DNA from: Candidatus Poribacteria bacterium
Lineage (GTDB): Bacteria > Poribacteria > WGA-4E > UBA9662
DNA: 64,000 nt
Reading direction: 5' to 3'
Assembly: GCA_002709695.1 (NCBI GenBank)
Contig: PAQF01000017.1
Location: forward strand, 3,051-67,050
Shown: positions 2,328-45,795 of the stretch, in pieces
How positions within the stretch are numbered: the stretch's first letter is position 1
Layout: every line of letters starts with the position of its first letter
Notes under the pieces: model-generated
Databases searched by the model: none
What the model saw: the letters and a program-made list of their open reading frames with translations, nothing else
What the model was told of the DNA's origin: nothing
Program-made: the position numbers and the translations under genes

Positions 2328-5300
2328 CTAAAATCCTGGCAACCTATGAGAAACCTGACGTGTATTATATTCTAAACGATAACGAAGATAATCAGGGCCA
2401 TTGGGAAAATGCTCCCCATTTCCAGGGGGATAACTGGTCGCCCCATGAAACGGTAACGGCTCTACGCTTTGAGACGCCAGCGTATTAATATCACCATCTT
2501 TTACCCATCCATCGCTGAATAAAATAAACGATCTAATCCAACCATCTTTTAGAATTGGGAACTGATCAACATCAAACTCAACCGTTATTTCGTCACCAGC
2601 ATTCATAATAACAGACATACTCTCACTTTTTTGCAGTAATTCACCGACTTCACCATAACGAGTGTAGAAACCTCCTAAATCTCTCCATCGTCTTTTTTTA
2701 TCAATCTGAGAGTAATCATAAAGATGAGGTGCATGGGGTGTTGGCCGATACATCTTTGGAAAACCCAGATAGTGCAAATCCGCACGATTGGGATGCCGCC
2801 GCGTTATCTGCATCGAAACATCATGATCTCCTATAGTAAAGAAAGCACGATCCCAATAAACCTGCATATTAGTTACAATACGAAGACGCCGGTCGTCAGA
2901 TAAAAATTTATCGGTCAGATCGATAACCAGTGTTTTATTCTTCCCAGCAGGAATACCTATCAAATCAATAACAGTTTTCCATTCACCTCGATCAGTTTTT
3001 ACTTGAAGATATGGGAATCTCGGATTGATGGATGGATTTTGTGATATTGACACATTAATAGATGTATCAGTTGGAAAGACCCATCCCGTTAAAAATAAAA
3101 GGACTTGCTGGCGAACATCAATATCACCAAGATCAAGCTCGATAAAATGCTGGTCCACAACCCCCTGAAATTTTCCTGGCTTATGTTCCACAGCATATTG
3201 ATAATCAAACTCTCCAAGTGCTATTGACACATCGTGTCCATGATGATTAATAGCTGATTTAGGAAATCTCATTTCTCTAACAGCATGAATCTTAAACGCA
3301 GGAAACGGTAACGGCGTAAACCTTTCATCAATGAAAATTTGAGTATCAACAGGATGATCAACAGCAACCAACTGAACCTGATCAAAGTATGTTGTTTCCC
3401 ATAACTCTTCTGTAATCTGAATTGAATATGTCCCGTTTACCGGTTTCATTTTATGACCGATTAAAACATAATCTCTCGACGAATCAGAGGAAGCAACTGT
3501 CCCGATAGAAGTTACCATACCAAGTGCACTACGCCATAACAAATCGGTTTTAAACTGAAATTGTTCACCATCAAAAACATACAAAAATGGGCAAGACCCC
3601 TTCAAAACCTGTTTTTCTACAATCCGTTGATTCGTTTTAGGAGAAATGACGTTCTGTGGCACCCCGTTTGTCCAAACTATACGCAGAACATCTGCCTGCT
3701 CAAGAGATCCCAACCCAAAATGGATAAAACTATGTTTTCGAAACGCATTTTCTAAATCAGGATCGGCCTTAGAACTATGATCGGCAATGAGTTTTTCAAC
3801 GTATGTCATCTGGTATAGATCACCAGCTTTAATTTCAACTCTTGAACCTAACCCATAGGCATTATTCTTATTATTACCTTCAGAAACTGCTTCCAATTCA
3901 ATCTGCAACCAACCATTTTGGTTACCACCTTCATTCTGAATTAGAAACCTATGCTCCCAAGTCCCAACAAGAAGATCGAGATCTCCATCACTATCACAAT
4001 CTTCAACTAGACCGTCAACCCAATTCCGTTTTCTACTAACATCATCCTGCAAGGTGGTTTCCGGAGTTTTTTTTACAGGCAGATCAGATAGTTTGAAAGT
4101 GGGAATCAAATATGATACGTCAGAAAATTGTGTAATCCCATCGTTTCGGAACAGCGACATCCGTTGTTCATCAATCACCCACACATCAAGATATCCATCA
4201 TTATCATAATCCATGAAATGAACATCTACTCCACCAAAAGCCATCAACGTAATATCTTTGATAAATTCTCCATCACCCCGATTTAAATAAAGCTGTGTAT
4301 CTACCTTAGTAGTTACACAGATATCAAGAGCCCCATCATGATCATAGTCCGCACTATCAATAGCAAGAGCTGCCTCTAACCCGTTCAAAATATTGGTCAC
4401 GGCAAACTTGCCTTGTCTCAGATTATCTAGCAGTAAACACCCTCGGCTAAGACTTGCCACTATGATATCCAAGTCACCATCATTATCAAAATCACCAGAT
4501 GTAACAGATCGTCCTCCTGAATCCAGAGTAGGGTAAAACGTTCGATCTGAGACATCAAGAAAGCTATTATCACCATTATTTCGATGCATTTGAACTCGAT
4601 CAGGAAAAACTGTTAAATTGTCGAGATCACCATCGTGATCATAGTCAATCCGGAGACGAACCAAACCTGGGGTTCTAGAAATCACTGCATGATGTATCGG
4701 CTGAGAAAAATTGACCGTAACCGGCTTGGTTTTGGTTGCTACCAAACGAGACTTAAAGCGGTGATCGAATTCCTCAATCGGGTGCCCCAATATTGGAGTA
4801 ATCAATTCACCAATCCCCTGCTGATATCTCGGCGAATTTTTATTAATGTTTTCAAAAATACGAAAATTCCGGTTAGCTCCTTTCATATCGCCTACTTCAA
4901 CCTGCTTCATACCCTCATCAAGATATTTAAGCTTCTCCAAATCAATATCAGAAAGTAATACACGTAACTCTTTGCCAATCTGTTCAACCTGTTCAACATC
5001 ACCATTATTTAATAATAATGCTTGTGCTAGCTTAAGAAGCACTACGATATTTGTGGGCGTCAGCTTTCGCAAAAACCTGAGATCCATGATCGCCCTAGAG
5101 ATAGCCTTGGTATTTCGGCGGTCGCGCAAATTTTCACGGATTAGCAGATAGCGAACTTCCAAATCATCGGGCTTTAATCGCAACGCTTCTTTTAACTCAG
5201 TAACAGCTTGGTCTGACTTCCCTTGAAAATGATAAATCTCCGAATAAATAAAATGTAGCTGGCTATTTAATGGCACGGTAGCAATTCCACGTTGAATTGC

Positions 5301-8063: not shown

Positions 8064-8157
8064 AGATAATCCCTCATAGGAAACCCAATTATCGCAATAA
8101 TAACACTGGGTCATAACGTTGTCAATTTCTCAGAACCAATGACCATTTCCCATTTTT

Positions 8158-8172
8158 TGGCACATACCTTGC
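8158..8172 (+). promoter_or_regulatory. Sigma-54 (RpoN) -24/-12 promoter upstream of flgF
   Basis: TTGGCACatacCTTGCT matches the consensus TGGCAC-N5-TTGC exactly, about 50 nt upstream of the flgF ATG (8223); a GGAG ribosome-binding site sits at 8212-8215. Confidence 0.5.
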
Positions 8173-8222
8173 TTGTTCAGAAAAACAGATTCGCAAGCAA
8201 GAATCAAAAATGGAGAAATGGA

Positions 8223-9005
8223 ATGCAAGGAATCTATAAAGCTGCACAAGGTATGATTTATGAAACGATGCGTATTGATATCATCGCTAATAATCTGGCC
8301 AACGCAGATGCAAATGGATACAAAGGAAGTGCACTTCAAGTAACTTCAACATTTGATGCAGAGCTCACCCAAGTTCTTGAAGAGAAAATGAATGTTAAAC
8401 CACCCTCAAATATAAGTCAAAATTCTGAATTGTTGGTAGCTCGATACAATATTGATTTCCAACAAGGCCCATTAAAAGAAACCAATGAAATATATGATGT
8501 TGGTATTGCCGGTCGAGGTTTCTTCGGCATTCAAAATGTTGATGGCTCGACAGTTTTCACCCGAGACGGGAGTTTCACGACCAACGACCAAGGACAGCTT
8601 GTAAATGGCCAGGGATTATTTGTCCTAGATCAAAGTGGTCAACCAATTCGCATACCAAACGGTGTCAGTGAACTCACGATAGGTGCAGATGGACGCATGT
8701 TTGCCGATGATGTGGAGTTTTCACAATTAATGTTGATTGATTTTGAGCAAAATGATCCTTATCCTCTGGGAAAAGTCGGCGGAAATCTATTTGAAATAAA
8801 TGACCCCAACGCACAACCAATTCCACTGAAAGCAACCCGTGGTGTTTCAACAATCAAACAAGGTTTCCTAGAATCAGCAAATGTAAACGTTGTCCACGAA
8901 ATGGTAAATATGATCCAAACTTTACGTAACTTCCAAGGATATCAGAAAACGATCCAAGCCCTGGATGAAACCGTACAACTAATCAACGATACTGCCAAGC
9001 AATAA
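8223..9005 (+). CDS. flgF: Flagellar basal-body rod protein FlgF
   Basis: Start refined to MQGIYKAAQGMIYETMRIDIIANNLANADANGYKG (Flg_bb_rod N-terminal signature); the C-terminal rod-protein domain is present; lies upstream of flgG. Confidence 0.8.
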   Translation: MQGIYKAAQGMIYETMRIDIIANNLANADANGYKGSALQVTSTFDAELTQVLEEKMNVKPPSNISQNSELLVARYNIDFQQGPLKETNEIYDVGIAGRGFFGIQNVDGSTVFTRDGSFTTNDQGQLVNGQGLFVLDQSGQPIRIPNGVSELTIGADGRMFADDVEFSQLMLIDFEQNDPYPLGKVGGNLFEINDPNAQPIPLKATRGVSTIKQGFLESANVNVVHEMVNMIQTLRNFQGYQKTIQALDETVQLINDTAKQ

Positions 9006-9026
9006 CACTCAATTGGAGAAGAAATT

Positions 9027-9815
9027 ATGATGCGTGCAATGTGGTCGGCCGCTTCCGGGATGGTTGCCCAACAAAAAAATATTGACGTTATTTCAAACAA
9101 TATTTCGAATGTGAACACGGTTGGTTTTAAAGGAAGCCGTGCCGATTTCCAAGATCTTATCTACCAAATCGTTCGCCCAGCTGGCACACTCAACCAATTA
9201 GGCACCGAAATACCAACAGGAATCGAAATTGGTCACGGAACACAACTTGTCGCCACTCCAACCCGGTTTTCACAGGGAGATCTAAAGGACACCGAAGATT
9301 CCCTAGACTTAGCAATCCAAGGTCCAGGGTTCTTCAAAATTCAAATGCCCGATGGACAATTCGGCTATACTCGTGCAGGCGCTTTCACACTTGATAGTGC
9401 ACGCAGTTTAGTAACCGCCAGTGGTTATCCATTGGATCCAAATATCTCAGTACCATCAGAAGCCAGTGATATCCTCATTTCGGAAGATGGTACCGTCTCC
9501 ATTCGTTTACCAGGTCAAATCGAATCTAACCTAATCGGCAACATTCAGTTATCTACTTTCCCAAACCCACGCGGATTACAGCATGCCGGACGCGGTCTAT
9601 ATCTACCTACAGGCGCTGCTGGAGATGAAACTATGGGTACTCCAGGTAAAGATGGTATCGGCACTCTCAGGTCAGGAATGCTTGAAATGTCAAATGTCAA
9701 GATTGTTGATGAGATGGTTGGCATGATCGTTGCTCAAAGAGCTTATGAAGCTAATTCAAAATCGATCCAAACAGCTGATGAAATGCTAAACGCTGCAAAT
9801 ACACTCCGTAGATAA
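9027..9815 (+). CDS. flgG: Flagellar basal-body distal rod protein FlgG
   Basis: MMRAMWSAASGMVAQQKNIDVISNNISNVNTVGFKGSRADFQDL...; length 262 aa and the C-terminal NAANTLRR are typical of FlgG. Confidence 0.85.
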   Translation: MMRAMWSAASGMVAQQKNIDVISNNISNVNTVGFKGSRADFQDLIYQIVRPAGTLNQLGTEIPTGIEIGHGTQLVATPTRFSQGDLKDTEDSLDLAIQGPGFFKIQMPDGQFGYTRAGAFTLDSARSLVTASGYPLDPNISVPSEASDILISEDGTVSIRLPGQIESNLIGNIQLSTFPNPRGLQHAGRGLYLPTGAAGDETMGTPGKDGIGTLRSGMLEMSNVKIVDEMVGMIVAQRAYEANSKSIQTADEMLNAANTLRR

Positions 9816-9832
9816 AAAGGATAAATAGTTAG

Positions 9833-10798
9833 ATGTTTGACTTAAAGCTTAAAGGTTTGTTCTTAACCTTGGTCTTGGCTAATTCTTTACTCAGCTCAGC
9901 TCATTCAGACACAAAGATCAAACTTAGACCACAAGCTGAAGTTCAGAGTCAGGTCATTCGTCTCGGAGATATTGCAGAAATTGAAGCTTCAACTGAATTG
10001 AAGCAAAAACTGCAAGGGATCGAACTTGGCAGGACAAACAAAACTGGACGTGCAAGAACTATCACTATTCCGCACATAAAGGCCAGAATTCTTAAACATA
10101 ACCTAGATAACTCTCACTTGAGTTTTGAAGGAACAATTTCATCTGTTACAAAAAAAACGATGACTATATCAACGGAACATATTTACAGTCAGGCGGAAAA
10201 TTTTTTCCAACAACAACTCCTGTCAACAAAAAATGATTCCGCAAAGCTCGAGATTCAACCGCTACAGCAGATCGAACCCATAACAGTTGATGATATGAAT
10301 TCAAAATTGAAATTTACACCAATAGGCGATCTCAGCCGAGGTTGTTTAGAAGCACAAATAATATCTAATGGCATAATAAAGAAACGCGTTCCGCTAACTT
10401 TTGAGATTATGATCAACCAACCAGTGATTGTAGCCAAATGTAACATTCCAAAAGGTGTTGGAATTCGACCTGATTTCTTATCAATAGAACCGCGTAGAAT
10501 TAAAAACCCAGCCAATACCTTACTAACAAAAATTAATCAGGTACAAGGAAAGATAGCCAGTAGATTAATTGCAAAAGGCAAAATAATTTCCAGATCCGAT
10601 TTCAAACAAGACTTCATCGTCTCCAAAGGATCCGTAGTAGCACTTATAGCCCAAAAAGGGGGTCTTAAAATACAAACACATGGCAAGGCAATCGAAAACG
10701 GCACTTTGGGACAACTTATTCGAGTTATCAGTCTTAACTCGAATAAGGAACGTATCGGCGAAGTAACTGGCAGAAATCGAATCCGCATACATTTTTAG
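9833..10798 (+). CDS. flgA: Flagellar P-ring formation chaperone FlgA
   Basis: 321 aa with signal peptide; C-terminal SAF-like region (IAKGKIISRSDF...VISLNSNKERIGEVTGRNRI); position between flgG and flgH. Confidence 0.7.
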   Translation: MFDLKLKGLFLTLVLANSLLSSAHSDTKIKLRPQAEVQSQVIRLGDIAEIEASTELKQKLQGIELGRTNKTGRARTITIPHIKARILKHNLDNSHLSFEGTISSVTKKTMTISTEHIYSQAENFFQQQLLSTKNDSAKLEIQPLQQIEPITVDDMNSKLKFTPIGDLSRGCLEAQIISNGIIKKRVPLTFEIMINQPVIVAKCNIPKGVGIRPDFLSIEPRRIKNPANTLLTKINQVQGKIASRLIAKGKIISRSDFKQDFIVSKGSVVALIAQKGGLKIQTHGKAIENGTLGQLIRVISLNSNKERIGEVTGRNRIRIHF

Positions 10799-10813
10799 TG
10801 AGGATATACCCTA

Positions 10814-11425
10814 GTGACTAAAAACCTTATCTCATATACTTTCTTATCAATAGCGCTTCTTTCTTCGAACTTCATAATTATCAACCAAGTTGATGCAGCA
10901 AAGAAATTAACAGTGTACGATGTATCAATGATTGCTGATAAAAAAGCGCGACGGGTTGGTGATGTTTTAACTGTCCTGGTCCTTGAACGTGCCAGCGCAA
11001 CACGAGAAGCCAAGACCGAAACAAGTCGTACCTCTGACCACAAAGGTCGACTTGGAGGCTTTGTTGGAATCCCTACAAGAGGACTTGGGGATGGCATTAG
11101 CCTAGGATCAGGTAATTCATTTACTGGAACTGGTTCTACCAGTCGAAGTGAAACCTTCGATGCAACGGTACCTGTTGTTGTGATAGAAGTCATGAAAAAT
11201 GGCAATCTCATGGTTGAAGGACAACGTAACATTCAGGTTAACAATGAAAAACAAACCATTAATGTAAAAGGAATCGTCAGGCCAACTGACATCACTGCAC
11301 ATAACACTATTATTTCAACCAATCTTGCAGGTGCCGAAATCATATATAACGGTGAGGGTCAAGTCAGCCAACAACAAAAACCTGGTTTTCTGTCACGATT
11401 ATTAAATTGGGTTTGGATCTTTTAG
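10814..11425 (+). CDS. flgH: Flagellar L-ring lipoprotein FlgH
   Basis: 203 aa; DKKARRVGDVLTVLVLERASATREAKTETSRTSD is the conserved FlgH core; signal peptide present. Confidence 0.8.
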   Translation: MTKNLISYTFLSIALLSSNFIIINQVDAAKKLTVYDVSMIADKKARRVGDVLTVLVLERASATREAKTETSRTSDHKGRLGGFVGIPTRGLGDGISLGSGNSFTGTGSTSRSETFDATVPVVVIEVMKNGNLMVEGQRNIQVNNEKQTINVKGIVRPTDITAHNTIISTNLAGAEIIYNGEGQVSQQQKPGFLSRLLNWVWIF

Positions 11426-11438
11426 TAAGGATGGAAAA

Positions 11439-12599
11439 ATGAAAAAAACTATCTCTCTATTAATTTGCATTTCGATTTTGGCCATTAGCTCTCCACAAAA
11501 TGCAACGGGGCAAACAGAAAAGCTACAGGTACGAATAAAGGATATTGTCAGCCTTGATGGTATTTACGAAGCAAAGTTGTTGGGGATGGGCGTTGTAACG
11601 GGACTCAATAACACAGGTGACAAACAAAACAATGAAGTAACACAAAGATTTCTTGAAAACATTATGAGGGAAATGGGAATATCAATCGCGCTCAGCCGAT
11701 TTGAAGCAAAAAACATGGCTGTCGTTACAGTTACAGCCACGTTGCCTCCATTCGCCAAAGTAGGGTCACAAATTGATGTTCAAGTTGAGTCTTTTCAAAA
11801 TGCTACCAGTCTACAAGGAGGAACACTGTTACCCACTCCCCTACTACACCCCCTTGATCCTTCCAAAGAAATCTACTTGATGGCAAGCGGTGTTATTTCA
11901 ATCGGTGGCTATGGGGCAGGTGAAAGTGGGAATCAAGTTCAAAAGAACCATTTAACTGCCGGCAACATACCGAACGGCGGTGTTGTTCACAAAGCTATGA
12001 GTGTGGATGTCTTTCAAGGTGAACAAATAACACTCGTTCCCTACCATGCGGATTATACAACAGTCACTCAAATTGTAGATAGAATAAATGACAATGAAAC
12101 TGGAAATGAAAAAGTTGCAGCTGCAGTAGATAGCGGTTCAATTAGAGTAAGCATTCCAACCAGATATCAAGACGCCAATCAAGCTATATACACCAATAAT
12201 GTTGTTCGCTTCGTTGCAGAAATCGGCGCACTCACAGTTGAAGTAGATCGTCCTGCAACTGTTGTTGTCGATGAAAGAACAGGAACTGTTGTTATTGGAT
12301 CAAACGTTACGATCTCAAACACTGCTGTCACGCATGGGGGACTGACGGTTACCGTAGGTTCCGAAGAGGAAGTATCTCAACCTAGCCCAATGAGTCAAGG
12401 AGAGACATTTCTACTGGAAGACACTGAGGTAACAGTTGAAGAAAAAGGAGGCGTGCTCGTGCCACTTCCAGATAGTGTTACAATCGATGAAGTAGTTAAC
12501 GCTTTAAACGCACTAGGTGCCACACCAAGAGAACTGATATCGATACTTCAAAACATAGAACGTGTTGGCGCACTTCATGCTAAGCTCATTGTTAGATAA
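11439..12599 (+). CDS. flgI: Flagellar P-ring protein FlgI
   Basis: 386 aa with signal peptide; RIKDIVSLDGIYEAKLLGMGVVTGLNNTGD is the FlgI N-terminal signature. Confidence 0.85.
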   Translation: MKKTISLLICISILAISSPQNATGQTEKLQVRIKDIVSLDGIYEAKLLGMGVVTGLNNTGDKQNNEVTQRFLENIMREMGISIALSRFEAKNMAVVTVTATLPPFAKVGSQIDVQVESFQNATSLQGGTLLPTPLLHPLDPSKEIYLMASGVISIGGYGAGESGNQVQKNHLTAGNIPNGGVVHKAMSVDVFQGEQITLVPYHADYTTVTQIVDRINDNETGNEKVAAAVDSGSIRVSIPTRYQDANQAIYTNNVVRFVAEIGALTVEVDRPATVVVDERTGTVVIGSNVTISNTAVTHGGLTVTVGSEEEVSQPSPMSQGETFLLEDTEVTVEEKGGVLVPLPDSVTIDEVVNALNALGATPRELISILQNIERVGALHAKLIVR

Positions 12600-12629
12600 A
12601 AGAGTTAGATTTCACAGGGCGGATGGAAA

Positions 12630-12953
12630 ATGAACCTTGATACTGGTATTAGCAAGTTTAACATGTCAAAATTCAACCATCAGATAAAAAAAATTTCTGA
12701 TACAGGAAAAAATACGGAAAAATTTTCTGGGGTTGATAAGAATTTACGTGAAGCAACACACGAATTCGAATCGTTATTTATTCATAATTTGTTGAAAACA
12801 ATGCGAGCTGCAATACCAAAGAGCGAATTTTTTAATGGAGGCTCTGGTGAAGAAATTTTCACAGACCTGTTGGATCAGGAAATTTCGAAAGTTGTATCGA
12901 AAAGAGGTATTGGAATCGCTGATGTTCTGTATCAGCGACTTACAAAGTCCTGA
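12630..12953 (+). CDS. Rod-binding protein (FlgJ N-terminal domain only; no muramidase domain)
   Basis: 107 aa; EFESLFIHNLLKTMRAA...EEIFTDLLDQEISK matches the Rod_binding/FlgJ N-terminal domain; no glucosaminidase domain follows. Confidence 0.6.
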   Translation: MNLDTGISKFNMSKFNHQIKKISDTGKNTEKFSGVDKNLREATHEFESLFIHNLLKTMRAAIPKSEFFNGGSGEEIFTDLLDQEISKVVSKRGIGIADVLYQRLTKS

Positions 12954-13045
12954 TTAATAGTGTTACATTCAAGATAGGTCTGATATAATTCAGGTTGTGT
13001 TCAGTAACTCAAGTTAAATTAAAAAAGAAATATGATAAAAGTCTC

Positions 13046-13073
13046 TAAAGTTTTTTGCCAAATGTGCCGAAAA
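13046..13073 (+). promoter_or_regulatory. Sigma-28 (FliA)-type promoter upstream of flgM
   Basis: TAAAG-N15-GCCGAAAA (consensus TAAAG-N15-GCCGATAA) ending about 40 nt upstream of the flgM start. Confidence 0.45.
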
Positions 13074-13112
13074 CAAACTTGAACTTGGATTTGAAAAAGG
13101 GAGTCAGATAAC

Positions 13113-13439
13113 ATGGTACCCATCAATCAAAAGGGAAAACTTGGAAGTTTAAATCAAGTTCTGACAAAGAAACAAGCGGAGAAAGTCCAAACTAACAAGA
13201 CAAATCCTTACCTCAATACACAAGAAGGAAAAGAAATAAAGGCAGAAAAAGACGGTTTTGTACAATCTACCAAAAGCAGTGAAGTCAATAGAATTAAAGA
13301 AAAGGCTAATCAACTGCCAGACATAGATTTGGAAAAAGTTGAAAAACTACGTCAGATGATTAAAGATGGTTCTTATACAGTTGACAATCAGGAAATCGCA
13401 GAAAACCTATTAGCCGCAGGCGCTAAGCTGGAAGAATAA
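13113..13439 (+). CDS. flgM: Anti-sigma-28 factor FlgM
   Basis: 108 aa; C-terminal KVEKLRQMIKDGSYTVDNQEIAENLL is the conserved FlgM sigma-28 binding helix region. Confidence 0.7.
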   Translation: MVPINQKGKLGSLNQVLTKKQAEKVQTNKTNPYLNTQEGKEIKAEKDGFVQSTKSSEVNRIKEKANQLPDIDLEKVEKLRQMIKDGSYTVDNQEIAENLLAAGAKLEE

Positions 13440-13482
13440 TTTAAAACAATTCTTTCTTAAACACGACATAAGGATATTCATT

Positions 13483-13974
13483 ATGCAAGACTTGTTGGAG
13501 AGACTAGCTGAAATTTTATCACAGCAACTGGATTTATATAACAAACTCCTGCTGAACCTCTCAGATCAGCGTTGCACGCTACCAACAGGAAACACAGAAG
13601 GTATCCATGAAATTCTCACACAACAGGAAAACTTGACTCTTGAGTTAAAGGCGTTAGAAGAAGCCCGTCTGCCTCTCATGGAAAAGCTATCTCAACATTT
13701 GCATGAACCAACAGAACAGTTAACTCTGATGAAATTAGCAAAAATGGTGGAAGAACCTTTCAGCAGCAAATATAAAAAATTGAGCAAACAAGTAAAAAAC
13801 ATAACACAACAAATTGATGATCGGAATCAGGACAATAAGTACTTGACCGATAATTCACTTGATCTCGTTAATACATCACTACGACTGTTTGCTACCTGTA
13901 ACCCATTCGGTTATAACGATCAAGACCTCTTACATTTTAAAGGGAAGGCTAGTAAATTCCAGACAACTGCTTAA
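13483..13974 (+). CDS. flgN: Flagellar export chaperone FlgN-like protein
   Basis: 163 aa, helical; MQDLLERLAEILSQQLDLYNKLLLNL is a FlgN-like N-terminus; position between flgM and flgK. Confidence 0.5.
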   Translation: MQDLLERLAEILSQQLDLYNKLLLNLSDQRCTLPTGNTEGIHEILTQQENLTLELKALEEARLPLMEKLSQHLHEPTEQLTLMKLAKMVEEPFSSKYKKLSKQVKNITQQIDDRNQDNKYLTDNSLDLVNTSLRLFATCNPFGYNDQDLLHFKGKASKFQTTA

Positions 13975-14015
13975 GAAGCAGATAATTCTAAGACCACTTA
14001 AGAAACTATACCACT

Positions 14016-15821
14016 ATGAACAATCTTATCAGTAGCCTCCAAATTGCGAAAAGAGCACTAAGCACTCAACGCCTAGGCTTATCAATTGCAGGCCACAACA
14101 TTTCCAATGTCAACACACCGAATTATGCCAGACAGCAAGCACTAGTTGAACCTGGTGTTAGCGGGGCCGGCATGGCAGGTGTTGAAATTACATATATCCG
14201 CCGAATTCAAGATAGAGTCGTTGATGAGAGACTTCGCCTTAACACTCAAGAACTCGCCAAGTGGAAAACCTTATCCGATCGACTAAACCAGATAGAAACT
14301 TTCTTTAGTGACCTTTCGGGAACAGGATTGTCGGGAGCACTCTCCGATTTTTGGAACAGTTGGCAAGATCTAACTGTTTCACCTGAATCGGAATCATCCA
14401 GACTCGTTACCGTTCAACGGGGTGTTGTTCTAGCATCCCGCTTGCAGGATATGAATGCAGGAATCGAAGAATCACACGCGGATTTGGATGCGGAGATCAA
14501 CCGAAAAATCACCGAAATCAATGAAATTACAACTCGGGTTGGAAAATTAAATCAAGAGATTGTTTCAATCGAGCTCTCTGGTAGTCAAGCAAACGACCAA
14601 CGAACTCTACGTGACTATCAAATGGCTCAACTATCAGAACTAATTAATTTCCGAACAACCGAGCGCGTGGATGGTTCCGTTCAGGTTTTCGTTGACAGCC
14701 TGTCGTTAGTTGAAGGAAACCGAGTAACAGAATTGGTTGCCGAACTTACCCCTGATTCCGAAGGAGGATCGACCAGCACTGCCTCAACAAAAGTCCTTGC
14801 TAGCAATAACGAAGTCAACATTTCAGAAGGAGCTTTGGCTGGACTGATCGAAGCCCGAGATCAACATTTACCTACTATGTTAACTCGGATGAAGACACTA
14901 TCAGAAACTTTAATTACACAAGTCAACAAACTGCACAAAACAGGCTATGGACTTGACAATTCATCAAGTCTAGATTTTTTCTCAGGGGCAAGTATCGAGG
15001 ATATTACCGTCAATTCACAATTACTTACTGATCCCAAGAAATTGGGAGTATCAGGCGCTACGGGCACACCAGGTAATAACGCAAGAGCACTGGAAATCGC
15101 CCAGTTACGGACATCTCTCACTATAGGCGCTACTGTAATTCCCAATGACCGACAGACTCTGACTGTTGAGAGTACTGATGGATGGGCTAAAAATGACATA
15201 TTAGGAGTAGCAGGTTCATCCGATTTAACTGGAGCCAGCACATGGGCTCGAATTCTAAAGATTGACAGTGGAACTCAAGTTACAGTTGAATTGTTTCAAA
15301 ATCCTACAACAAAAACATTCGATAAGAAATTCGACTTTACACAAGAAGATGGCTCAACTACAGTTCTTACTAATAAAGTATACCGTGACGCAGCCGGTAA
15401 TTACCTAACTGTTGATCCTAATCCATCCGACGATAAAGATCTAGACCAGCTGGTGGCACTCTCCGAAGGCGAAGAAGGAAAGCTCGAGGAATTGTGGAGT
15501 GCAACGGGCAAAAGTTCCGTCATGACAGCAAACCCGCAAACATTTACGTCAAATGAAACATTCACTGAAGGAACACAAACTTTCAGTGATTACTTTGCCA
15601 GTATGTATAGTTTCATTGGAACACAAAGCCAACAAGCCCAAAGAAATTCTGACAATACTGAACTCCTTGTTCAGCAACTCACAGACTACCGTGAAAAAGT
15701 CTCAGGCGTCTCTCTGGACGAAGAAATGGCTAACCTGATACAATTTCAACGTGCGTTCGAAGCTTCAGCAAGATACATCAGAGTAGTTGATGAAATGCTA
15801 TCGACACTGATGAACATGTAG
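14016..15821 (+). CDS. flgK: Flagellar hook-associated protein 1 FlgK
   Basis: 601 aa; N-terminus MNNLISSLQIAKRALSTQRLGLSIAGHNISNVNTPNYARQ and C-terminus MANLIQFQRAFEASARYIRVVDEMLSTLMNM are FlgK hallmarks. Confidence 0.85.
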   Translation: MNNLISSLQIAKRALSTQRLGLSIAGHNISNVNTPNYARQQALVEPGVSGAGMAGVEITYIRRIQDRVVDERLRLNTQELAKWKTLSDRLNQIETFFSDLSGTGLSGALSDFWNSWQDLTVSPESESSRLVTVQRGVVLASRLQDMNAGIEESHADLDAEINRKITEINEITTRVGKLNQEIVSIELSGSQANDQRTLRDYQMAQLSELINFRTTERVDGSVQVFVDSLSLVEGNRVTELVAELTPDSEGGSTSTASTKVLASNNEVNISEGALAGLIEARDQHLPTMLTRMKTLSETLITQVNKLHKTGYGLDNSSSLDFFSGASIEDITVNSQLLTDPKKLGVSGATGTPGNNARALEIAQLRTSLTIGATVIPNDRQTLTVESTDGWAKNDILGVAGSSDLTGASTWARILKIDSGTQVTVELFQNPTTKTFDKKFDFTQEDGSTTVLTNKVYRDAAGNYLTVDPNPSDDKDLDQLVALSEGEEGKLEELWSATGKSSVMTANPQTFTSNETFTEGTQTFSDYFASMYSFIGTQSQQAQRNSDNTELLVQQLTDYREKVSGVSLDEEMANLIQFQRAFEASARYIRVVDEMLSTLMNM

Positions 15822-15841
15822 GACATAAAGGAACCAAAATT

Positions 15842-16759
15842 ATGCGAGTAACACACAAAAGTATTACCTATAAAGCCATCGTCAATATGCAAAGAAGCCT
15901 CCGGCAAGTTGAAGGGAAAACAGATGAAATTTCGACAGGCCGAAAAATCTCCTTACCATCGGACGATCCATCCCAAGCTACCCGTGCATTAGGATACCAA
16001 CAAAAGATCGCTCAAAGCCAACAATACTCACGTAATATGGATACCGTAGTTGACCGATTGAACCAAACAGAATCAGCTCTCGGAGAAATTAACGGATCTG
16101 TCGTGCAAATCAAAGAAATTGCTTTAACTTTAAAAGATCCATCTATTACAGCAGAAGAATTGAATAACGCATTTGAAAAACTCAGTCAACTCAAGGAACA
16201 ACTTGTAAAACTTGGAAATACAAAAGTGGGTGATCAGTACATTTTTGGCGGTAGTAATACAACTTCCAGATCTTTCGAACTCACAGATGATGGCCAAATC
16301 CTCTACCGCGGCAACACATCTGAAATCAACGTAGAAATGGGTGACAACATATCAATAACTACAAACATTCCAGGAACAACAATATTTAGCATGCAAGCTA
16401 CTACGGCAGGTATTATTACCGATAATGGTGTTTTTGGGTCCTTAGATACCCTAATGCAGGTAGCACAAGGAGGCGAACCACCAGCTGATTTTGATAATGT
16501 GTTAGACGAAATTGACGGACTAAATAATACAGTCATTAACGCACGAGCAATCAACTCAAACCGAGGGTTCCGTGCCGAGTCAGCACAAGAATCATTATCA
16601 GCAGAACAAACTAGTGTTGAAGGAGTTTTAGCCAGTATCATGGAAACCGATACAGCATTGGCTCTAACAGAACTCCTATCCTTACAGGAAGCTTATCAGT
16701 TGACTCTTAACGTAGTAAACAAATCTTTTCAACGTTCTCTAGTGGACGTCCTCGGTTAA
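15842..16759 (+). CDS. flgL: Flagellar hook-associated protein 3 FlgL
   Basis: 305 aa; flagellin-like N-terminus (ISTGRKISLPSDDPSQATRAL) and C-terminus (ALALTELLSLQEAYQLTLNVVNKSFQRSLVDVL). Confidence 0.8.
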   Translation: MRVTHKSITYKAIVNMQRSLRQVEGKTDEISTGRKISLPSDDPSQATRALGYQQKIAQSQQYSRNMDTVVDRLNQTESALGEINGSVVQIKEIALTLKDPSITAEELNNAFEKLSQLKEQLVKLGNTKVGDQYIFGGSNTTSRSFELTDDGQILYRGNTSEINVEMGDNISITTNIPGTTIFSMQATTAGIITDNGVFGSLDTLMQVAQGGEPPADFDNVLDEIDGLNNTVINARAINSNRGFRAESAQESLSAEQTSVEGVLASIMETDTALALTELLSLQEAYQLTLNVVNKSFQRSLVDVLG

Positions 16760-16912: not shown

Positions 16913-18811
16913 TCACCAATCCTTAAACGGGAAAATGTTTGTATTGGCTAAGATACCATAGATACTCCATAGACTCCCCAATACGAATTCACCAAGTACC
17001 ATCCCTAAGAAAAAAGGGGAAAATCTTCGGTGCACTCCCAATCCACCATGTTTAAGAACTACCCATTTGACTAAAGTTGCAACCAAGAGGGACAGCCACA
17101 GCCAGTTCATACACCAATCATCTGCACCAGATACAGCATAACCAACAGCATGAAAAGGCCACCAGAAGAATTTCATTCGACAAAACATCAGGATAAATGT
17201 AAAAACCATTCCAACCCCAATAAACATAGCTTCCAAGAATCTAGGACCTGAAGGATGATTCATCTGCTGCTGTAATTTCCGGTAAGGTTCCCAGCCAAAC
17301 CCACCACCAGAACCAAAATGGTACGAATCATGTGCATATGCCCAAAACGAAGAAACAGATCCTACAATGATAGCCAAGATTATTGAGATTATGAGTGGGC
17401 TGGATCCAAAACCAGATCGATCAGCTAATTTAAACGCTTCGAGTTGGTGAGGCATTGCATGACTACGATGTGCTCGATTAAAGAAAAAGAAGAACGAGAG
17501 TACCGTCAAATTTTGCCCACCTAGAAATCGGGTGCCTAAGCATGTTGCCAATGTGTAATCAGCCCCCATAATATGCAGGTCATGAGCAGGAGCTCCCGAT
17601 TCAGCTCGCATTCTTGTAATCCCTATGGACAAAAAATAGTAAATCAAAAAAAAAGCAACAGCTATCCAAATGCTCAATCCCATCTTGTGAGAAAACCCAA
17701 CAAGGTACGCTAAACCAAGAACAATTCCGAGTACCGCATTCCGATACCTCATCGGCTCATTAGATTCATCTAGTCCAGAGTGACCCACTACTACATGTTT
17801 TAGAATTCGCGTTAAATATTTCCGGCTAGTCCACACAGCAAATATAGATAATCCCAAATAGGCACCAAGGGACTGTTGACGATCGTATGGAAACCCAGGT
17901 AACGATCTCATGCCGAGAATTGCCCCCAGCACATGCTGTAACTTACGGAATAGAAAAAAGAACCAACATGAAAATGACAGATCTATCGGCATGAAAAACC
18001 CAAGTCCAATAACAAATGGATAAATCGAAAAGCGTATTGTCCCAAGAGCATTCCAAGGTTTTTCAGTAAATAAATAGCCAATATTTCGAAACCGCACACC
18101 AATGACAGGAACACTTGGGATGAAATAACTCAACCCATTAACAACATTCAACATGGCAACTAAGATAAATGCGAACCAAAAGAGTCTATTACTGAAAAAT
18201 TGTGTCCCGCTGTTCTGCGTCATGGCAAAAGGAAGCTCAATAATCGGATAAGCCAGTTTTTCATTTTCCGTCCACTTTTTGCGCAAGATAACGTTTATAC
18301 ATACCATAACAAATAGAAGTGCAACGATAAAAGTCGTCCACCACAACATTGGTGGCACCCATGCTTTAAATTTCACGAGACTATAAAGCGTTGATTCCCC
18401 TTCGTAATACCCTTCCAGAACCAACTTGTCTTGAATGGTCAACCATTCTGGAATGTAGCGAAAAAAGAGATCTCTCCACTCATTTTCCGGCGTTTCAAAC
18501 CAATAAGCGTGACCAATCAAAGGAACAAGAATTTGCCCAAAATCGTGTGAAGCAACGACGCTCCCCATACACAACAAGATATAAATTGTGAGCAATTCGC
18601 TTTGTGTCAATGTCCAATCAGGCTGAATATTTTTTATCAACCAGTTTAGCAATATAATTACAAACAGACAAAAAATGACATTAAAAAAAAGCGACATTGT
18701 AGTTGGAAACAATCCCCACCAAACCATTTCTGTGTAGATAATCCAGTAGGAATTGAGAGGGATTAACAGAAGTGAAATCAAAACAGATCGGCGGGTTATA
18801 TTATGCGACAT
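16913..18811 (-). CDS. Polytopic membrane protein of unknown function (paralog of 46060..48012), 632 aa
   Basis: At least 12 predicted TM helices; shares a long collinear similarity with the 650-aa protein at 46060..48012 (for example PAHDLHIMGADY...RAHRSHAMPHQLEAFKLADRSG versus PAHDLYNAGPDL...SYRAHPMPHQLEALKLAHQTR; WPFHAVGYAVSG versus WPLHPVGYVVSS). No recognised catalytic motif. Confidence 0.6.
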   Translation of the reverse strand: MSHNITRRSVLISLLLIPLNSYWIIYTEMVWWGLFPTTMSLFFNVIFCLFVIILLNWLIKNIQPDWTLTQSELLTIYILLCMGSVVASHDFGQILVPLIGHAYWFETPENEWRDLFFRYIPEWLTIQDKLVLEGYYEGESTLYSLVKFKAWVPPMLWWTTFIVALLFVMVCINVILRKKWTENEKLAYPIIELPFAMTQNSGTQFFSNRLFWFAFILVAMLNVVNGLSYFIPSVPVIGVRFRNIGYLFTEKPWNALGTIRFSIYPFVIGLGFFMPIDLSFSCWFFFLFRKLQHVLGAILGMRSLPGFPYDRQQSLGAYLGLSIFAVWTSRKYLTRILKHVVVGHSGLDESNEPMRYRNAVLGIVLGLAYLVGFSHKMGLSIWIAVAFFLIYYFLSIGITRMRAESGAPAHDLHIMGADYTLATCLGTRFLGGQNLTVLSFFFFFNRAHRSHAMPHQLEAFKLADRSGFGSSPLIISIILAIIVGSVSSFWAYAHDSYHFGSGGGFGWEPYRKLQQQMNHPSGPRFLEAMFIGVGMVFTFILMFCRMKFFWWPFHAVGYAVSGADDWCMNWLWLSLLVATLVKWVVLKHGGLGVHRRFSPFFLGMVLGEFVLGSLWSIYGILANTNIFPFKDW

Positions 18812-21843: not shown

Positions 21844-22404
21844 TTGATTATACTTTCGACTTTAATTATTAGTACAGTAGTATGCTCGGGAATTTCAATC
21901 GTTTTTTACTCGCTCTATAATGGTATTTCACCAATGCCAACCTCGTCAAAAGTCAAACACCAAGTATTAGACGTGCTTAGTGAAAATGAAACGCAAGGAA
22001 CAATTTATGAGCTAGGATCAGGTTGGGGAACACTAGCATTTGCTATCGCAAAAAGATTTCCGAAATGCCAAGTTATCGCTTACGAAAATTCATTGGTTCC
22101 ATATATATACACGCAAATATACAAATTCTTCATCAGAACAAACAACCTAAATATCAAACGAGAAAATTTCTTCAATGCCCTCCTGAGCCAAGCAAATACA
22201 ATCGTTTGTTACCTATCCACTGATATCATGGTGCGCTTACAACCTAAACTTGCATCAGAACTACAAAAAGAAACTTTGGTGGTTACCAATACATTCGCTT
22301 TACCAAGTTGGACACCACAACAAACTATTGAAACGGAAGATCTGTACAGAACCAAGATCCACATTTACGTAAATCAAAATAAAGCGAAAAAAAACAGGAG
22401 ATAG
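21844..22404 (+). CDS. Class I SAM-dependent methyltransferase with N-terminal TM helix
   Basis: 186 aa; YELGSGWGTLAFAIAKRFPKCQVIAYENS carries the GxGxG SAM-binding motif. Confidence 0.55.
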   Translation: MIILSTLIISTVVCSGISIVFYSLYNGISPMPTSSKVKHQVLDVLSENETQGTIYELGSGWGTLAFAIAKRFPKCQVIAYENSLVPYIYTQIYKFFIRTNNLNIKRENFFNALLSQANTIVCYLSTDIMVRLQPKLASELQKETLVVTNTFALPSWTPQQTIETEDLYRTKIHIYVNQNKAKKNRR

Positions 22405-22407
22405 AAT

Positions 22408-22974
22408 ATGGCTTGGATCAAAACTATACCATGGTCTGCGGCAAACAAACAGTTGCGTGATGCCATTAAAAAACAAAAAAAACTATACCCTACTGAATAT
22501 GGCATACCAGATCACGCTTTAGATCAAATAAACGAAAGTATTGTTAATTCCCACAGCCTAATTCCAGATGCTTTATACCATGCATTTGCGAATTTCGGTG
22601 TACTAATGTCACCCAAATTACCCTTAACCCGAAAACAACATGAAATGATTTCTACTGTCGTATCTGCTACTAACCAGTGTAAATACTGAACTAACTCTCA
22701 CGCAGAGTTTCTGCGTCAAGTAACGTTGGATGATAACCTAGTAGCATCCCTGATTAATGATTATACAACAGCACCTGTAAATCGAAGTGATGCTGTTATG
22801 CTGAATTATGCTGTAAAGTTAACAAAAGACTCTACCTCAATTACTTCCGCTGATCACAAGGAATTACGAACTGTCGGTTTCAACGATCAAGCCATTTTAC
22901 AGATTACGCTGATAGCAGCTTGGTTTAACTATATTAATCGGGTTGCCGACGCCCTTGGAATTGGGAAAGATTAA
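22408..22974 (+). CDS. AhpD-like / carboxymuconolactone decarboxylase (CMD) family protein; candidate selenoprotein with in-frame UGA (Sec) at 22687..22689
   Basis: ORFs 22408..22689 and 22726..22974 are in the same frame, separated only by TGA. Read-through gives ...SATNQ-C-K-Y-[TGA][10 protein letters not shown]..., reproducing the AhpD C-x-x-C-x3-H active-site spacing with TGA at the second Cys. Protein-like sequence continues for 95 more codons to TAA. A stable hairpin lies 10 nt downstream of the TGA. Confidence 0.6.
22700..22716 (+). promoter_or_regulatory. Candidate bacterial SECIS-like hairpin downstream of in-frame UGA
   Basis: ACGCAG-aguuu-CUGCGU: a perfect 6-bp stem with a U-rich/GU-containing 5-nt loop, starting 11 nt after the UGA codon. 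Confidence 0.4.
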
Positions 22975-30856: not shown

Positions 30857-32512
30857 ATGAAACTTGCTGCTTATTTTCTTCTGATTATATTCCTAATTGT
30901 AAATAGCAAATTAAATTACGGCGACGCCCAAAAACGCCCAATGCTGTTTACTGACGTAACAAAAGAATCAGGAATTGACTTTCTGCATTATGATGGGCGA
31001 AATGAACAACATTACTTTGTCGAAACAATAGGATCTGGATGTGCATTCATTGATTTTGACAATGATGGTTATCTGGATATTTATCTTGTCAATGCAACTG
31101 ATTTACCAGGATCTCACGCCCAAATCTCACCAAGGAATACACTCTATCAAAACGACAGAAATGGAGGCTTTATTGATGTCACAAACCAAGCTGGGGTTGG
31201 TGATTTGGGCTATGGTACAGGAATAACATCAGCTGATTACAATAACGATGGCTTTGGAGACATTTACATTACTAATTTTGGAACAAATGTACTTTACAAA
31301 AACAATAAAGATGGGACTTTTACTGATGTTACCAAATTCGCTAAAGTAGAAAGCCCCACATGGAGTGCAGGAGCATCTTTCGGGGATTATAATGGCGATG
31401 GCTTCGTCGACCTTTATGTAACAAGTTATTGTGACTTCAAACTAACAGATCACAAAAACTGCCAAGAGCAGGGTATTGTAGTGTATTGTGGCCCCGAGGA
31501 GTTCAACGGTATACCTGATACTTTATATCAAAATAATGGGGATGGAACCTTTACCGATGTAACAAAAAGTGCAGGCGTATTCAATCCAGAAGGAAAAGGT
31601 ATGATGGCTGTATGGTCAGATTACGATGATGATGGAAGCCTTGATTTGTTCGTTGCTAATGACGGAACTGAAAATTTTTTATATCGGAATAACGGTGACG
31701 GAACTTTCACTGATATTGCTTGGATTGCAGGCGTTGAAAACGATGATCAAGGTAATCCACAAGGAAGCATGGGAATTGACTTTGCTGATTACAACAACGA
31801 CGGGATGTTTGATTTAATTATCACTAATTTTCAGCGCCAGCTAAACATGCTGTATAGAAATGATGGAGATGGGCTCTTTAGCGACACGACCTTTACCGCA
31901 GGACTTGGTTATACGTTACCATATGTCAGCTGGGGTATTGGTTTCTTCGATTTCGATAATGATTCGTTTCGGGATCTCTTCATTGCTAACGGACACATTC
32001 AAGACCATATCGAACTCTACGATTCAAGCACAACCTATCTCCAACCCAACCATTTGCTGATTAATAACAAAGGTAGAAGTTTCATGAATGTGTCAGACCA
32101 ACTCCATCTAGGAGGGCTGAAAGCAAGTCGTGGCGTTGCTTTTGGCGATTTCGACAACGATGGAGATATCGATATTTTAATCAACAATGCTCACGATCGA
32201 CCGAATCTTCTGCGGAACGATCTTAGTCCTGGTTATCATTGGATATCTATCAAAACAATCGGAACAAAAAGTAACAGAGATGGAATTGGGTGCCGAATTA
32301 AGGTGTTCGGTGAAAAATTCTTTTCAACTGCGGACGTACGGTCCGGAGCGAGTTACATGTCTCAAAACGATTTTCGTGCACACTTTGGTCTTGGACAAGT
32401 AGAGAAGATTAATCAAATCGAAGTCCATTGGCCTAGTGGCATAGTTGATTTGATAGAAGATGTTACCGTCAACCAAATTCTTACAATTGTAGAGGGGTCC
32501 TCTCAACTGTGA
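30857..32512 (+). CDS. CRTAC1-family protein (FG-GAP/VCBS repeats + ASPIC/UnbV domain), secreted
   Basis: 551 aa with signal peptide; seven DxDxDGxxD-type repeats (FDNDGYLDIYLVN, DYNNDGFGDIYITNFG, DYNGDGFVDLYVTSY, DYDDDGSLDLFVANDG, DYNNDGMFDLIITNFQ, DFDNDGDIDILINN); C-terminal ASPIC/UnbV (DGIGCRIKVFGEKFFSTADVRSGASYMSQND). Confidence 0.75.
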   Translation: MKLAAYFLLIIFLIVNSKLNYGDAQKRPMLFTDVTKESGIDFLHYDGRNEQHYFVETIGSGCAFIDFDNDGYLDIYLVNATDLPGSHAQISPRNTLYQNDRNGGFIDVTNQAGVGDLGYGTGITSADYNNDGFGDIYITNFGTNVLYKNNKDGTFTDVTKFAKVESPTWSAGASFGDYNGDGFVDLYVTSYCDFKLTDHKNCQEQGIVVYCGPEEFNGIPDTLYQNNGDGTFTDVTKSAGVFNPEGKGMMAVWSDYDDDGSLDLFVANDGTENFLYRNNGDGTFTDIAWIAGVENDDQGNPQGSMGIDFADYNNDGMFDLIITNFQRQLNMLYRNDGDGLFSDTTFTAGLGYTLPYVSWGIGFFDFDNDSFRDLFIANGHIQDHIELYDSSTTYLQPNHLLINNKGRSFMNVSDQLHLGGLKASRGVAFGDFDNDGDIDILINNAHDRPNLLRNDLSPGYHWISIKTIGTKSNRDGIGCRIKVFGEKFFSTADVRSGASYMSQNDFRAHFGLGQVEKINQIEVHWPSGIVDLIEDVTVNQILTIVEGSSQL

Positions 32513-35948: not shown

Positions 35949-36233
35949 ATGGTGAATATCATGACCAATCAGGATTATAAAAGACCATGGTGCCATCAAT
36001 GCCAGGCACATAACTGCCCACGAGAGAAGTGGTTCTCTTTTACCTGCAGAAAATGTGGGACAAAAATGACTCGAGGCACAGTCATGTGGGCATTTTACAT
36101 TGGTATCCTGGTTTGGATCGGGTTGCCAATACTAACAGAAAACGTACGCCAATCAGAATACTTTTTTCCGTGGTTGCTCATACCAGTATATATGCTAATT
36201 CGAATATGGATAACATCTAAAGGAAAATCCTGA
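35949..36233 (+). CDS. Small zinc-ribbon (CxxC...CxxC) membrane protein
   Basis: 94 aa; CHQCQAHNCP...CRKCGTKM followed by two hydrophobic helices. Confidence 0.3.
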   Translation: MVNIMTNQDYKRPWCHQCQAHNCPREKWFSFTCRKCGTKMTRGTVMWAFYIGILVWIGLPILTENVRQSEYFFPWLLIPVYMLIRIWITSKGKS

Positions 36234-45111: not shown

Positions 45112-45795
45112 CTAGGAAACCATAGATTTTGACATCCAAGGACCAGTTATAGCCAGAGTTAAACCTGGTGATTGAATATTAACAAAAAGTATTGTCCCAT
45201 CTGGTGAAAAAGTAGCGCCTGCCAATTCAGATTTCTGTGGCATAGCGTTTTTTGCAAACTGATACAATTCTCTATTCGAGGTAATCCCAATCAAATTCTG
45301 GTCTTCAGATCCATCCTCACAAACAACCCAATCTCCCCATGGAGACATGGTAATGTTATCCCCCATATCAAGAATTCGGCTTTGGTTCAGTTCGACAAAA
45401 AGTTCCAATTTGGCGGGATTCTTTTCCTCACCAGTAGTCCCTTCATACCTACTTGGAATATAACGCCAAACTTGCCCTTTCCGGTTTGGTCCACCAGCAG
45501 TACAAACAAAAAATATTGTTTGGCCATCAAAAAACACCCCTTCTCCTCTAGCAAAAACAGCGGCACCTTTATACAAACCCTGTTTTCTCAAATCGTCTTT
45601 TGGAGATTCGACTTCCTCGACATCAATCCAGCGTATATCGAACAACACCCCCAACACTATTCCTTCCAATCGAAATTTGAAAATACGATTATACCAAGAC
45701 AATGTTTCAGCTTTAAACACGTTAAGGTCAAGTAACCGCCAATTGCAAGTGTTAGCACTCGGCATATCTCGAATTGCCAGAGCCTCAAGTCCCAC
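45112..45795 (-). CDS. PhoX/DUF839-family beta-propeller protein, C-terminal portion only (likely truncated or decaying)
   Basis: 227 aa; NQSRILDMGDNITMSPWGDWVVCEDGSEDQNLIGITSNRELYQFAKNAMPQKSELAGATFSPDGTILFVNIQSPGLTLAITGPW matches, from memory, the conserved C-terminus of PhoX-like/DUF839 proteins, which are normally about 450-700 aa with a Tat signal. No N-terminal half is found upstream. Confidence 0.4.
   Translation of the reverse strand: MGLEALAIRDMPSANTCNWRLLDLNVFKAETLSWYNRIFKFRLEGIVLGVLFDIRWIDVEEVESPKDDLRKQGLYKGAAVFARGEGVFFDGQTIFFVCTAGGPNRKGQVWRYIPSRYEGTTGEEKNPAKLELFVELNQSRILDMGDNITMSPWGDWVVCEDGSEDQNLIGITSNRELYQFAKNAMPQKSELAGATFSPDGTILFVNIQSPGLTLAITGPWMSKSMVS

Follow-up and report, generated by a model that had tools for sequence, protein, structure and literature searches.

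Within the 64,000-nucleotide stretch of DNA analysed here (referred to below as the window), a reading frame opens at ATG 22408 and runs for 93 codons to a TGA at 22687-22689, after which the same frame continues for 94 sense codons until it closes at TAA 22972-22974. The ORF listing presents this region as two entries, 22408..22689 and 22726..22974. The initial annotation had placed both in one frame with the TGA as their sole separator, and direct reading agrees with this; the residues leading into the stop on read-through are S-A-T-N-Q-C-K-Y, followed by the UGA. Together, the two ORFs form a single gene that codes for an AhpD-like, thiol peroxidase-related enzyme: its homologues are unsplit genes of 188 amino acids, and their C-terminal half never occurs separately. 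The features of the gene are collected in Table 1.

Table 1. Features of the AhpD-like gene, with positions numbered from the first nucleotide of the window.
Feature	Position	Strand	Remarks
Predicted AhpD-like (TIGR01926) selenoprotein gene, 188 residues	22408..22974	+	ATG 22408, in-frame UGA at codon 94, TAA 22972-22974; from translation, HMM, homologues and dN/dS
Shine-Dalgarno-like AGGAG	22396..22400	+	7 nt 5' of the ATG; read from the sequence, putative function
Glu79 codon	22642..22644	+	Equivalent to M. tuberculosis AhpD Glu118, proton relay; by spacing and TIGR00777 register
Cys91 codon	22678..22680	+	First Cys of CxxU; equivalent to AhpD Cys130
UGA codon 94, very probably read as selenocysteine	22687..22689	+	Equivalent to AhpD Cys133; TGA in orthologues, TGC in Cys forms
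His98 codon	22699..22701	+	Equivalent to AhpD His137; CAC in 76/76 Sec forms
Putative bacterial SECIS-type hairpin, codons 98-103 (HAEFLR)	22700..22716	+	7-bp stem, GUU loop; 6 inner pairs invariant across the family

The Shine-Dalgarno-like sequence overlaps the end of an upstream ORF (21844-22404, plus strand; TAG 22402-22404) that codes for 186 amino acids without assigned function and gave no Pfam match. Because its TAG lies 3 nt ahead of the ATG, this ORF is probably co-transcribed with the AhpD-like gene. By eye, it contains a GxGxG motif (YELGSGWGTLA) reminiscent of SAM-dependent methyltransferases. Its C-terminus is also found 5' of the orthologue in a close relative (locus L088, described below); synteny with distant orthologues is absent, and the upstream ORF is common to this close relative only. 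On the other side, a penicillin amidase gene follows 20 nt downstream. These immediate neighbours give no functional hint.

Tara Oceans assemblies and those of other marine metagenomes contain genes identical to those of the window, pointing to a marine organism; the contigs concerned include ENA ERZ28654517 TARA_SAMEA2622846_METAG-scaffold_51 (146,855 bp) and ERZ17173241 NODE_651110 (138,966 bp). A flagellar basal-body and hook-associated cluster occupies 8139-16759 (plus strand) and includes FlgF/G-like, FlgA, FlgH (L-ring), FlgI (P-ring), FlgN, FlgK and FlgL-like genes, which makes the organism a motile diderm. In the remainder of the window, genes for sulfatase/FGE-sulfatase, GFO/IDH/MocA, PhyH, FG-GAP/ASPIC and TPR proteins are abundant. 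A guess based on gene content alone would be a pelagic Poribacteria-like organism. Three DUF6785/DUF6784 paralogues of approximately 630-650 amino acids lie within about 50 kb, at 16913-18811 (minus strand), at 46060-48012 (plus strand) and at 11810-13723 of contig L174. The 227-aa ORF at 45112-45795 (minus strand) matches the C-terminal part only of PhoX alkaline phosphatase (profile positions 304-515 of 515); it represents a truncated gene or else a domain that stands on its own. About 3-4 kb past the right end of the window, a GH172-family gene is found in pieces of 137 and 189 amino acids on contigs L171 and L173 (14857-15926), and the gene at the same site on L172 (14857-15930) is a single one of 357 amino acids; the split may be a strain-level frameshift or stop.

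The initial annotation had assigned the gene to the AhpD/CMD family, and profile searches bear this out. With Cys substituted at the UGA, the read-through product scored 112.8 bits against TIGR01926 ("peroxidase-related enzyme", curated cutoff 81.8) in a single match that covers residues 50-185 and crosses the UGA, and it scored 35.1 against Pfam CMD (PF02627, cutoff 23). Canonical AhpD of the M. tuberculosis type is ruled out, given a score against TIGR00777 of 25.8 bits, far under the cutoff of 191.95, in a partial match (residues 75-112 on profile positions 114-151) that involves the active-site helix pair alone. Membership in NF041238 (AhpD_rel_CFYUT) is likewise ruled out (74.4 against a cutoff of 175), as is membership in the YciW-related branch NF053654 (34.1 against 310); the gene has the superfamily and the CxxU logic in common with these two but sits in neither branch. 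Five solved structures (2pfx, 3c1l, 2oyo, 6k40 and 2prr) were matched at E values of 1e-16 to 1e-22; the match to chain 2pfx_A (E 1.8e-22) covers residues 56-183. Based on sequence similarity to these five chains, the protein very likely adopts the all-helical AhpD fold.

In the alignments with 2pfx and 3c1l, it is the second Cys of CxxC that falls on the UGA. The proton relay of M. tuberculosis AhpD is formed by Glu118, Cys130, His132, Cys133 and His137, and that of Pseudomonas aeruginosa PA0269 by Glu36, Cys48, Tyr50, Cys51 and His55 (PMC3141380). Here the relay reads Glu79, Cys91, Tyr93, UGA94 and His98. All three proteins belong to the CMD/AhpD superfamily and have the same Glu-x11-Cys-x-x-Cys-x3-His spacing; the E-C-U-H intervals of 12/3/4 are identical to those in M. 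tuberculosis AhpD, and the UGA occupies the second Cys of the signature. Because the relay spacing and the TIGR00777 register agree, the UGA can be placed at the position equivalent to Cys133. The view that it stands at the catalytic Cys of C-x-x-C-x-x-x-H was therefore correct, the aligned residue being Cys in homologues and in solved structures. Tyr93 is like Tyr50 of PA0269 (PMC3141380), whereas M. tuberculosis AhpD has His132. Two further differences from the M. tuberculosis enzyme are that a predicted Sec replaces the Cys133 equivalent and that there is no adjacent ahpC. No peroxiredoxin or AhpC-TSA domain was detected among the scanned long ORFs of the window, and none adjoins the gene. 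At 61494-62720 (plus strand), the window also encodes a 408-aa fusion of an N-terminal glutaredoxin with Pyr_redox_2 (pyridine-nucleotide-disulfide oxidoreductase). An identical copy of this fusion is found on at least 23 public marine contigs, and the enzyme could act as a thiol-redox partner.

Hundreds of full-length homologues, approximately 188 amino acids long, were found in a protein search. Among the best 120, residue 94 is Cys in roughly half, so that Cys orthologues at the UGA, which the initial annotation had suggested looking for, do exist; in about half (approximately 65) the residue is given as W. P0001 (98% identical) and P0002 (82% identical), which are the closest relatives, are deposited with W, and their DNA has TGA at this codon. 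Translation of their loci (L081 and L088, respectively) under table 11 did not yield the deposited W protein. As judged from the DNA of these two entries, the W at position 94 appears to be an artefact of gene callers that translated TGA as Trp. The two loci come from assemblies independent of the one analysed here. L081 differs from the window by 9 nt and keeps the TGA, and L088, the product of which has 82% protein identity to that of the window, keeps it as well. Since L081 is independent and retains the TGA, a sequencing error, which had been raised as a possible objection, is excluded.

Codon 94 was then read from DNA in two sets of orthologues. One set comprised 80 loci on one-genome-per-species contigs, and the motif could be located in 76 genes; the codon is TGA in 75 of them and TGC in the remaining one. 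The genomes are MAGs of Acidobacteriota, Gemmatimonadota, Planctomycetota, Ca. Poribacteria and Ca. Zixiibacteriota, and the best match in this set is 68% identical. The other set consisted of 78 genes from metagenome contigs found with a Cys-form query and from individually fetched loci, and here TGA was read in 69 and TGC in nine. In all, 145 orthologous genes from at least five phyla have TGA at the homologous codon (we refer to these as Sec forms). Among the closest relatives, TGA forms outnumber Cys forms, which is a mildly new point. Two contigs deserve separate mention. A soil metagenome contig (L097) carries tandem paralogues, a Sec form at about 1001-1558 (TGA 1280) and a Cys form at about 1590-2150 (TGC 1867), and the full hairpin described below is present in the Sec copy only. 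On L089, a Cys-form AhpD-like gene is followed, after approximately 1 kb, by a T4_deiodinase-family gene (4490-4801); the T4_deiodinase family also includes selenoproteins.

Coding-like sequence had been reported to continue beyond the UGA, and the 94 sense codons up to the TAA show the corresponding selection. Comparison of the window with L088 by the Nei-Gojobori method, split at the UGA, gave dN/dS values of 0.21 upstream and 0.11 downstream (dS 0.66), and comparison with L081 gave 0.10 downstream. Between the UGA and the putative second start, Ser97, Val105 and Thr106 are conserved at the protein level across 76 Sec-form genes, with third positions that vary freely (1.6-1.7 bits). The downstream dN/dS of 0.11, together with the synonymous variation at these three residues, demonstrates that translation continues through the UGA. 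The putative second start, TTG 22726 (codon 107), is CTG, CTC, CTT or CTA in 45 of 76 orthologues, and the start of the second ORF is a product of the ORF listing.

Just past the UGA, the mRNA can form a hairpin in which ACGCAGA (22700-22706) pairs with UCUGCGU (22710-22716) around a GUU loop (22707-22709). The last two bases of the His98 codon are the first two bases of its 5' arm. The initial annotation had described a 6-bp hairpin 11 nt after the UGA. Its presence is upheld and its length is not, as the stem has 7 bp; the 11-nt distance holds for the 6-bp core that is conserved in the family, and for the full stem the spacer is 10 nt. A fold of the 60 nt after the UGA (centroid) recovered the hairpin, with a z of 0.06 against dinucleotide shuffles, which is not unusual. 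The significance of the hairpin thus comes from the comparison of orthologues and not from the stability of the single sequence. In 76 Sec forms, the third positions of codons 98-103 (CAC GCA GAG TTT CTG CGT) have entropies of 0, 0.18, 0, 0.10, 0 and 0.35 bits, compared with about 1.3 bits as a rule where the amino acid is invariant elsewhere in the gene, and the low-entropy codons 98-103 coincide exactly with the hairpin. All seven pairs are kept in 70 of 75 Sec forms; the outermost pair alone is lost in four and the loop-closing pair alone in one. In the Cys forms (n = 9), the same third positions have 0.5-1.0 bits, residue 99 changes from Ala to Val or Leu, and the 7-bp stem is found in none. 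The synonymous choice made for HAEFLR has a probability of approximately 5e-4 under the codon usage of the window itself (40% GC).

RNAalifold predicted a consensus 6-bp stem with a GUU loop, and neither this program nor pair counting found any compensatory changes in the stem, which is invariant. Because the stem never varies there is no covariation, and the support for it therefore derives from constraint at synonymous sites and not from compensatory change. We also built a covariance model (R1) from 30 distant orthologues, with the window and its close relatives left out. In the 64-kb window it matched a sole site, 22687-22734, at 59.6 bits (E approximately 3.5e-11; next best 13 bits), a score that is not purely structural because R1 also captures coding conservation. 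Rfam, searched at the gathering threshold over the whole window and permissively over 22600-22800, returned noise only and had no applicable bacterial SECIS family. The covariance-model check proposed earlier for this region thus gave a match at the UGA alone in the window, and the proposal of a SECIS element after the UGA is supported by this match, by a conserved hairpin at the expected distance and by synonymous constraint in the TGA forms. The near-invariance of this 17-nt SECIS over at least five phyla is quantified here and is mildly new.

The minimal SECIS of E. coli fdhF is an upper stem-loop about 11 nt past the UGA, with a G/U in the apical loop that is bound by SelB. The hairpin described here is similar in that it lies within coding sequence just past the UGA, at 11 nt to the conserved 6-bp stem, and in that it has GU in the loop and a similar stem core (GCAG...CUGC). 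It is different in having a GUU triloop, or a pentaloop if the closing A-U pair opens, and in having no bulged U.

Elsewhere in the window, TGA acts as a normal stop codon. It ends 9 of the 46 long ORFs, and the three genes cited for this purpose in the initial annotation (30857..32512, 35949..36233 and 12630..12953) do end in TGA and have no internal stop. When the window was scanned, no in-frame TGA other than TGA 22687 had substantial real coding sequence both before and after it, and no further plausible candidates for selenoproteins with an in-frame TGA emerged. The TGA at 22687 is therefore a case of site-specific recoding and not a reassigned codon, in agreement with the earlier proposal. 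ARAGORN found no tRNA genes in the window, tRNA-Sec included. A motif search of the window for the P-loop of a SelB-type GTPase and for the SelD N-terminus gave no match, and SelA, SelB and SelD domains were absent from the Pfam results for 40 long window ORFs and from precomputed Pfam results for five more. Nor was Sec machinery found in approximately 10 kb of flank on each side, as represented by public contigs with identical window genes. With none in the window or in these flanks, selA, selB, selC and selD are presumed to be present in the genome on the strength of the selection evidence.

Could the TGA simply be a nonsense mutation, the lesion of a pseudogene, or an error of sequencing or assembly, with a 93-residue N-terminal fragment or nothing at all being made? 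Only one base change separates TGC or TGT from TGA, homologues of the Cys form exist, and the gene is listed as two ORFs, all of which would fit such a lesion. However, the TGA is shared by the independent assemblies of the two close relatives and by 143 more distant orthologues, the half of the gene downstream of it evolves at a dN/dS of 0.11, and the hairpin is conserved in TGA forms only. These observations effectively refute a lesion or an error, to which we would assign an extremely low probability. The listing of a TTG-initiated downstream ORF of 82 amino acids (from 22726) might also suggest a split gene, in which polypeptides of 93 and 82 amino acids are translated separately and assemble into one enzyme. 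Against this, the TTG, a Leu codon, is so often replaced by CTN codons in the orthologues, as described above, and no Shine-Dalgarno sequence is visible 5' of 22726. Codons 95-106, which include the catalytic His98, are conserved at the protein level with synonymous variation, and a split would lose the second redox residue and part His98 from both fragments. This arrangement is next to impossible in our estimation. Purifying selection downstream, the conserved residues 97, 105 and 106 and the variable codon 107 together leave room for neither a pseudogene nor a split gene.

That so many homologues (approximately 65 of the best 120) are deposited with W might be taken to mean that a variant code or a suppressor tRNA makes the UGA a codon for Trp, or else for Gly or Cys. 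Yet both W entries that were checked have TGA in their DNA and give no W under table 11, and the homologues with a sense codon at this position always have the catalytic Cys there, never Trp or Gly. The host phyla use the standard code, and the use of TGA as a stop in the window, with a single exception flanked by real coding sequence, is that of a standard code as well. In addition, the conserved downstream hairpin is required for the insertion of Sec and not for the reassignment of a codon. We regard decoding as another amino acid as very improbable.

Having weighed these alternatives, we conclude that the UGA at codon 94 very probably encodes selenocysteine in an AhpD-like, TIGR01926-type peroxidase-related thiol oxidoreductase, an assignment that rests on comparative sequence evidence. 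In the mechanism that we propose for selenocysteine insertion, Sec-tRNA(Sec) would be brought by a SelB-type elongation factor, which would dock on the mRNA hairpin 10-11 nt past the UGA and supply the ribosome with Sec, so that termination would not occur at this codon. The product would have the active site E79...C91-K-Y-U94-T-N-S-H98, with Sec in place of the second active-site Cys. Most likely, the enzyme would cycle between the selenol/thiol form and an intramolecular selenenylsulfide, reducing a peroxiredoxin partner or a hydroperoxide. The actual insertion of selenium and the physiological substrate are both points that we infer.

The gene is a member of an already known selenoprotein family, the AhpD-like family (COG2128/TIGR01926, CxxU). 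This family was first reported from the Sargasso Sea, with 27 sequences assigned to COG2128, a CXXU motif and a predicted SECIS (Zhang, Fomenko & Gladyshev 2005, PMC1088965). In the GOS survey of 2008 it appears as "AhpD-like 1" (COG2128, CxxU) with 299 Sec and 902 Cys sequences, making it the fourth most abundant prokaryotic selenoprotein family (PMC2398784). AhpD-like selenoproteins are also found in sequenced bacterial genomes (PMC1794560); a 2026 review has the AhpD-like selenoprotein under TIGR01926 with CxxU (PMC13188914), and it is catalogued in BSepDB (PMC13326102). The gene described here agrees with the family in scoring above the TIGR01926 cutoff, in having the predicted Sec at the second Cys, in its marine metagenome habitat, in a SECIS with an apical-loop G past the UGA and in the abundance of Cys homologues. 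We see no substantive difference; it is an additional and probably unannotated member, from a marine bacterium of 40% GC. The finding opens no new question, since the Sargasso Sea and GOS surveys already counted the AhpD-like CxxU proteins among their most abundant selenoprotein families.

There are nevertheless practical consequences for annotation. With standard gene calling, this gene ends up split, truncated or, as in about half of the closest entries, with Trp at the UGA, and neither the redox enzyme nor the dependence on selenium is then recognised. The wide mis-translation of this UGA codon as Trp in public databases appears to be a mildly new practical point. When the gene is called correctly, the organism becomes a probable selenium user and gains one Sec-dependent antioxidant or thiol-redox enzyme. 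A further suggestion, which we offer as speculative and rather doubtful, is that this marine, flagellated, sulfatase-rich lineage of 40% GC may be a Sec user that has not yet been recognised, and that the minimal SECIS of the Sec clade of TIGR01926 may be specific to this family and unusually rigid. If the latter were true, an identical 17-nt hairpin would have been kept in at least five phyla, although synonymous divergence in the rest of the gene is saturated. Such a joint constraint on protein and RNA, acting on HAEFLR, could help to define the rules of SelB recognition outside the Proteobacteria.
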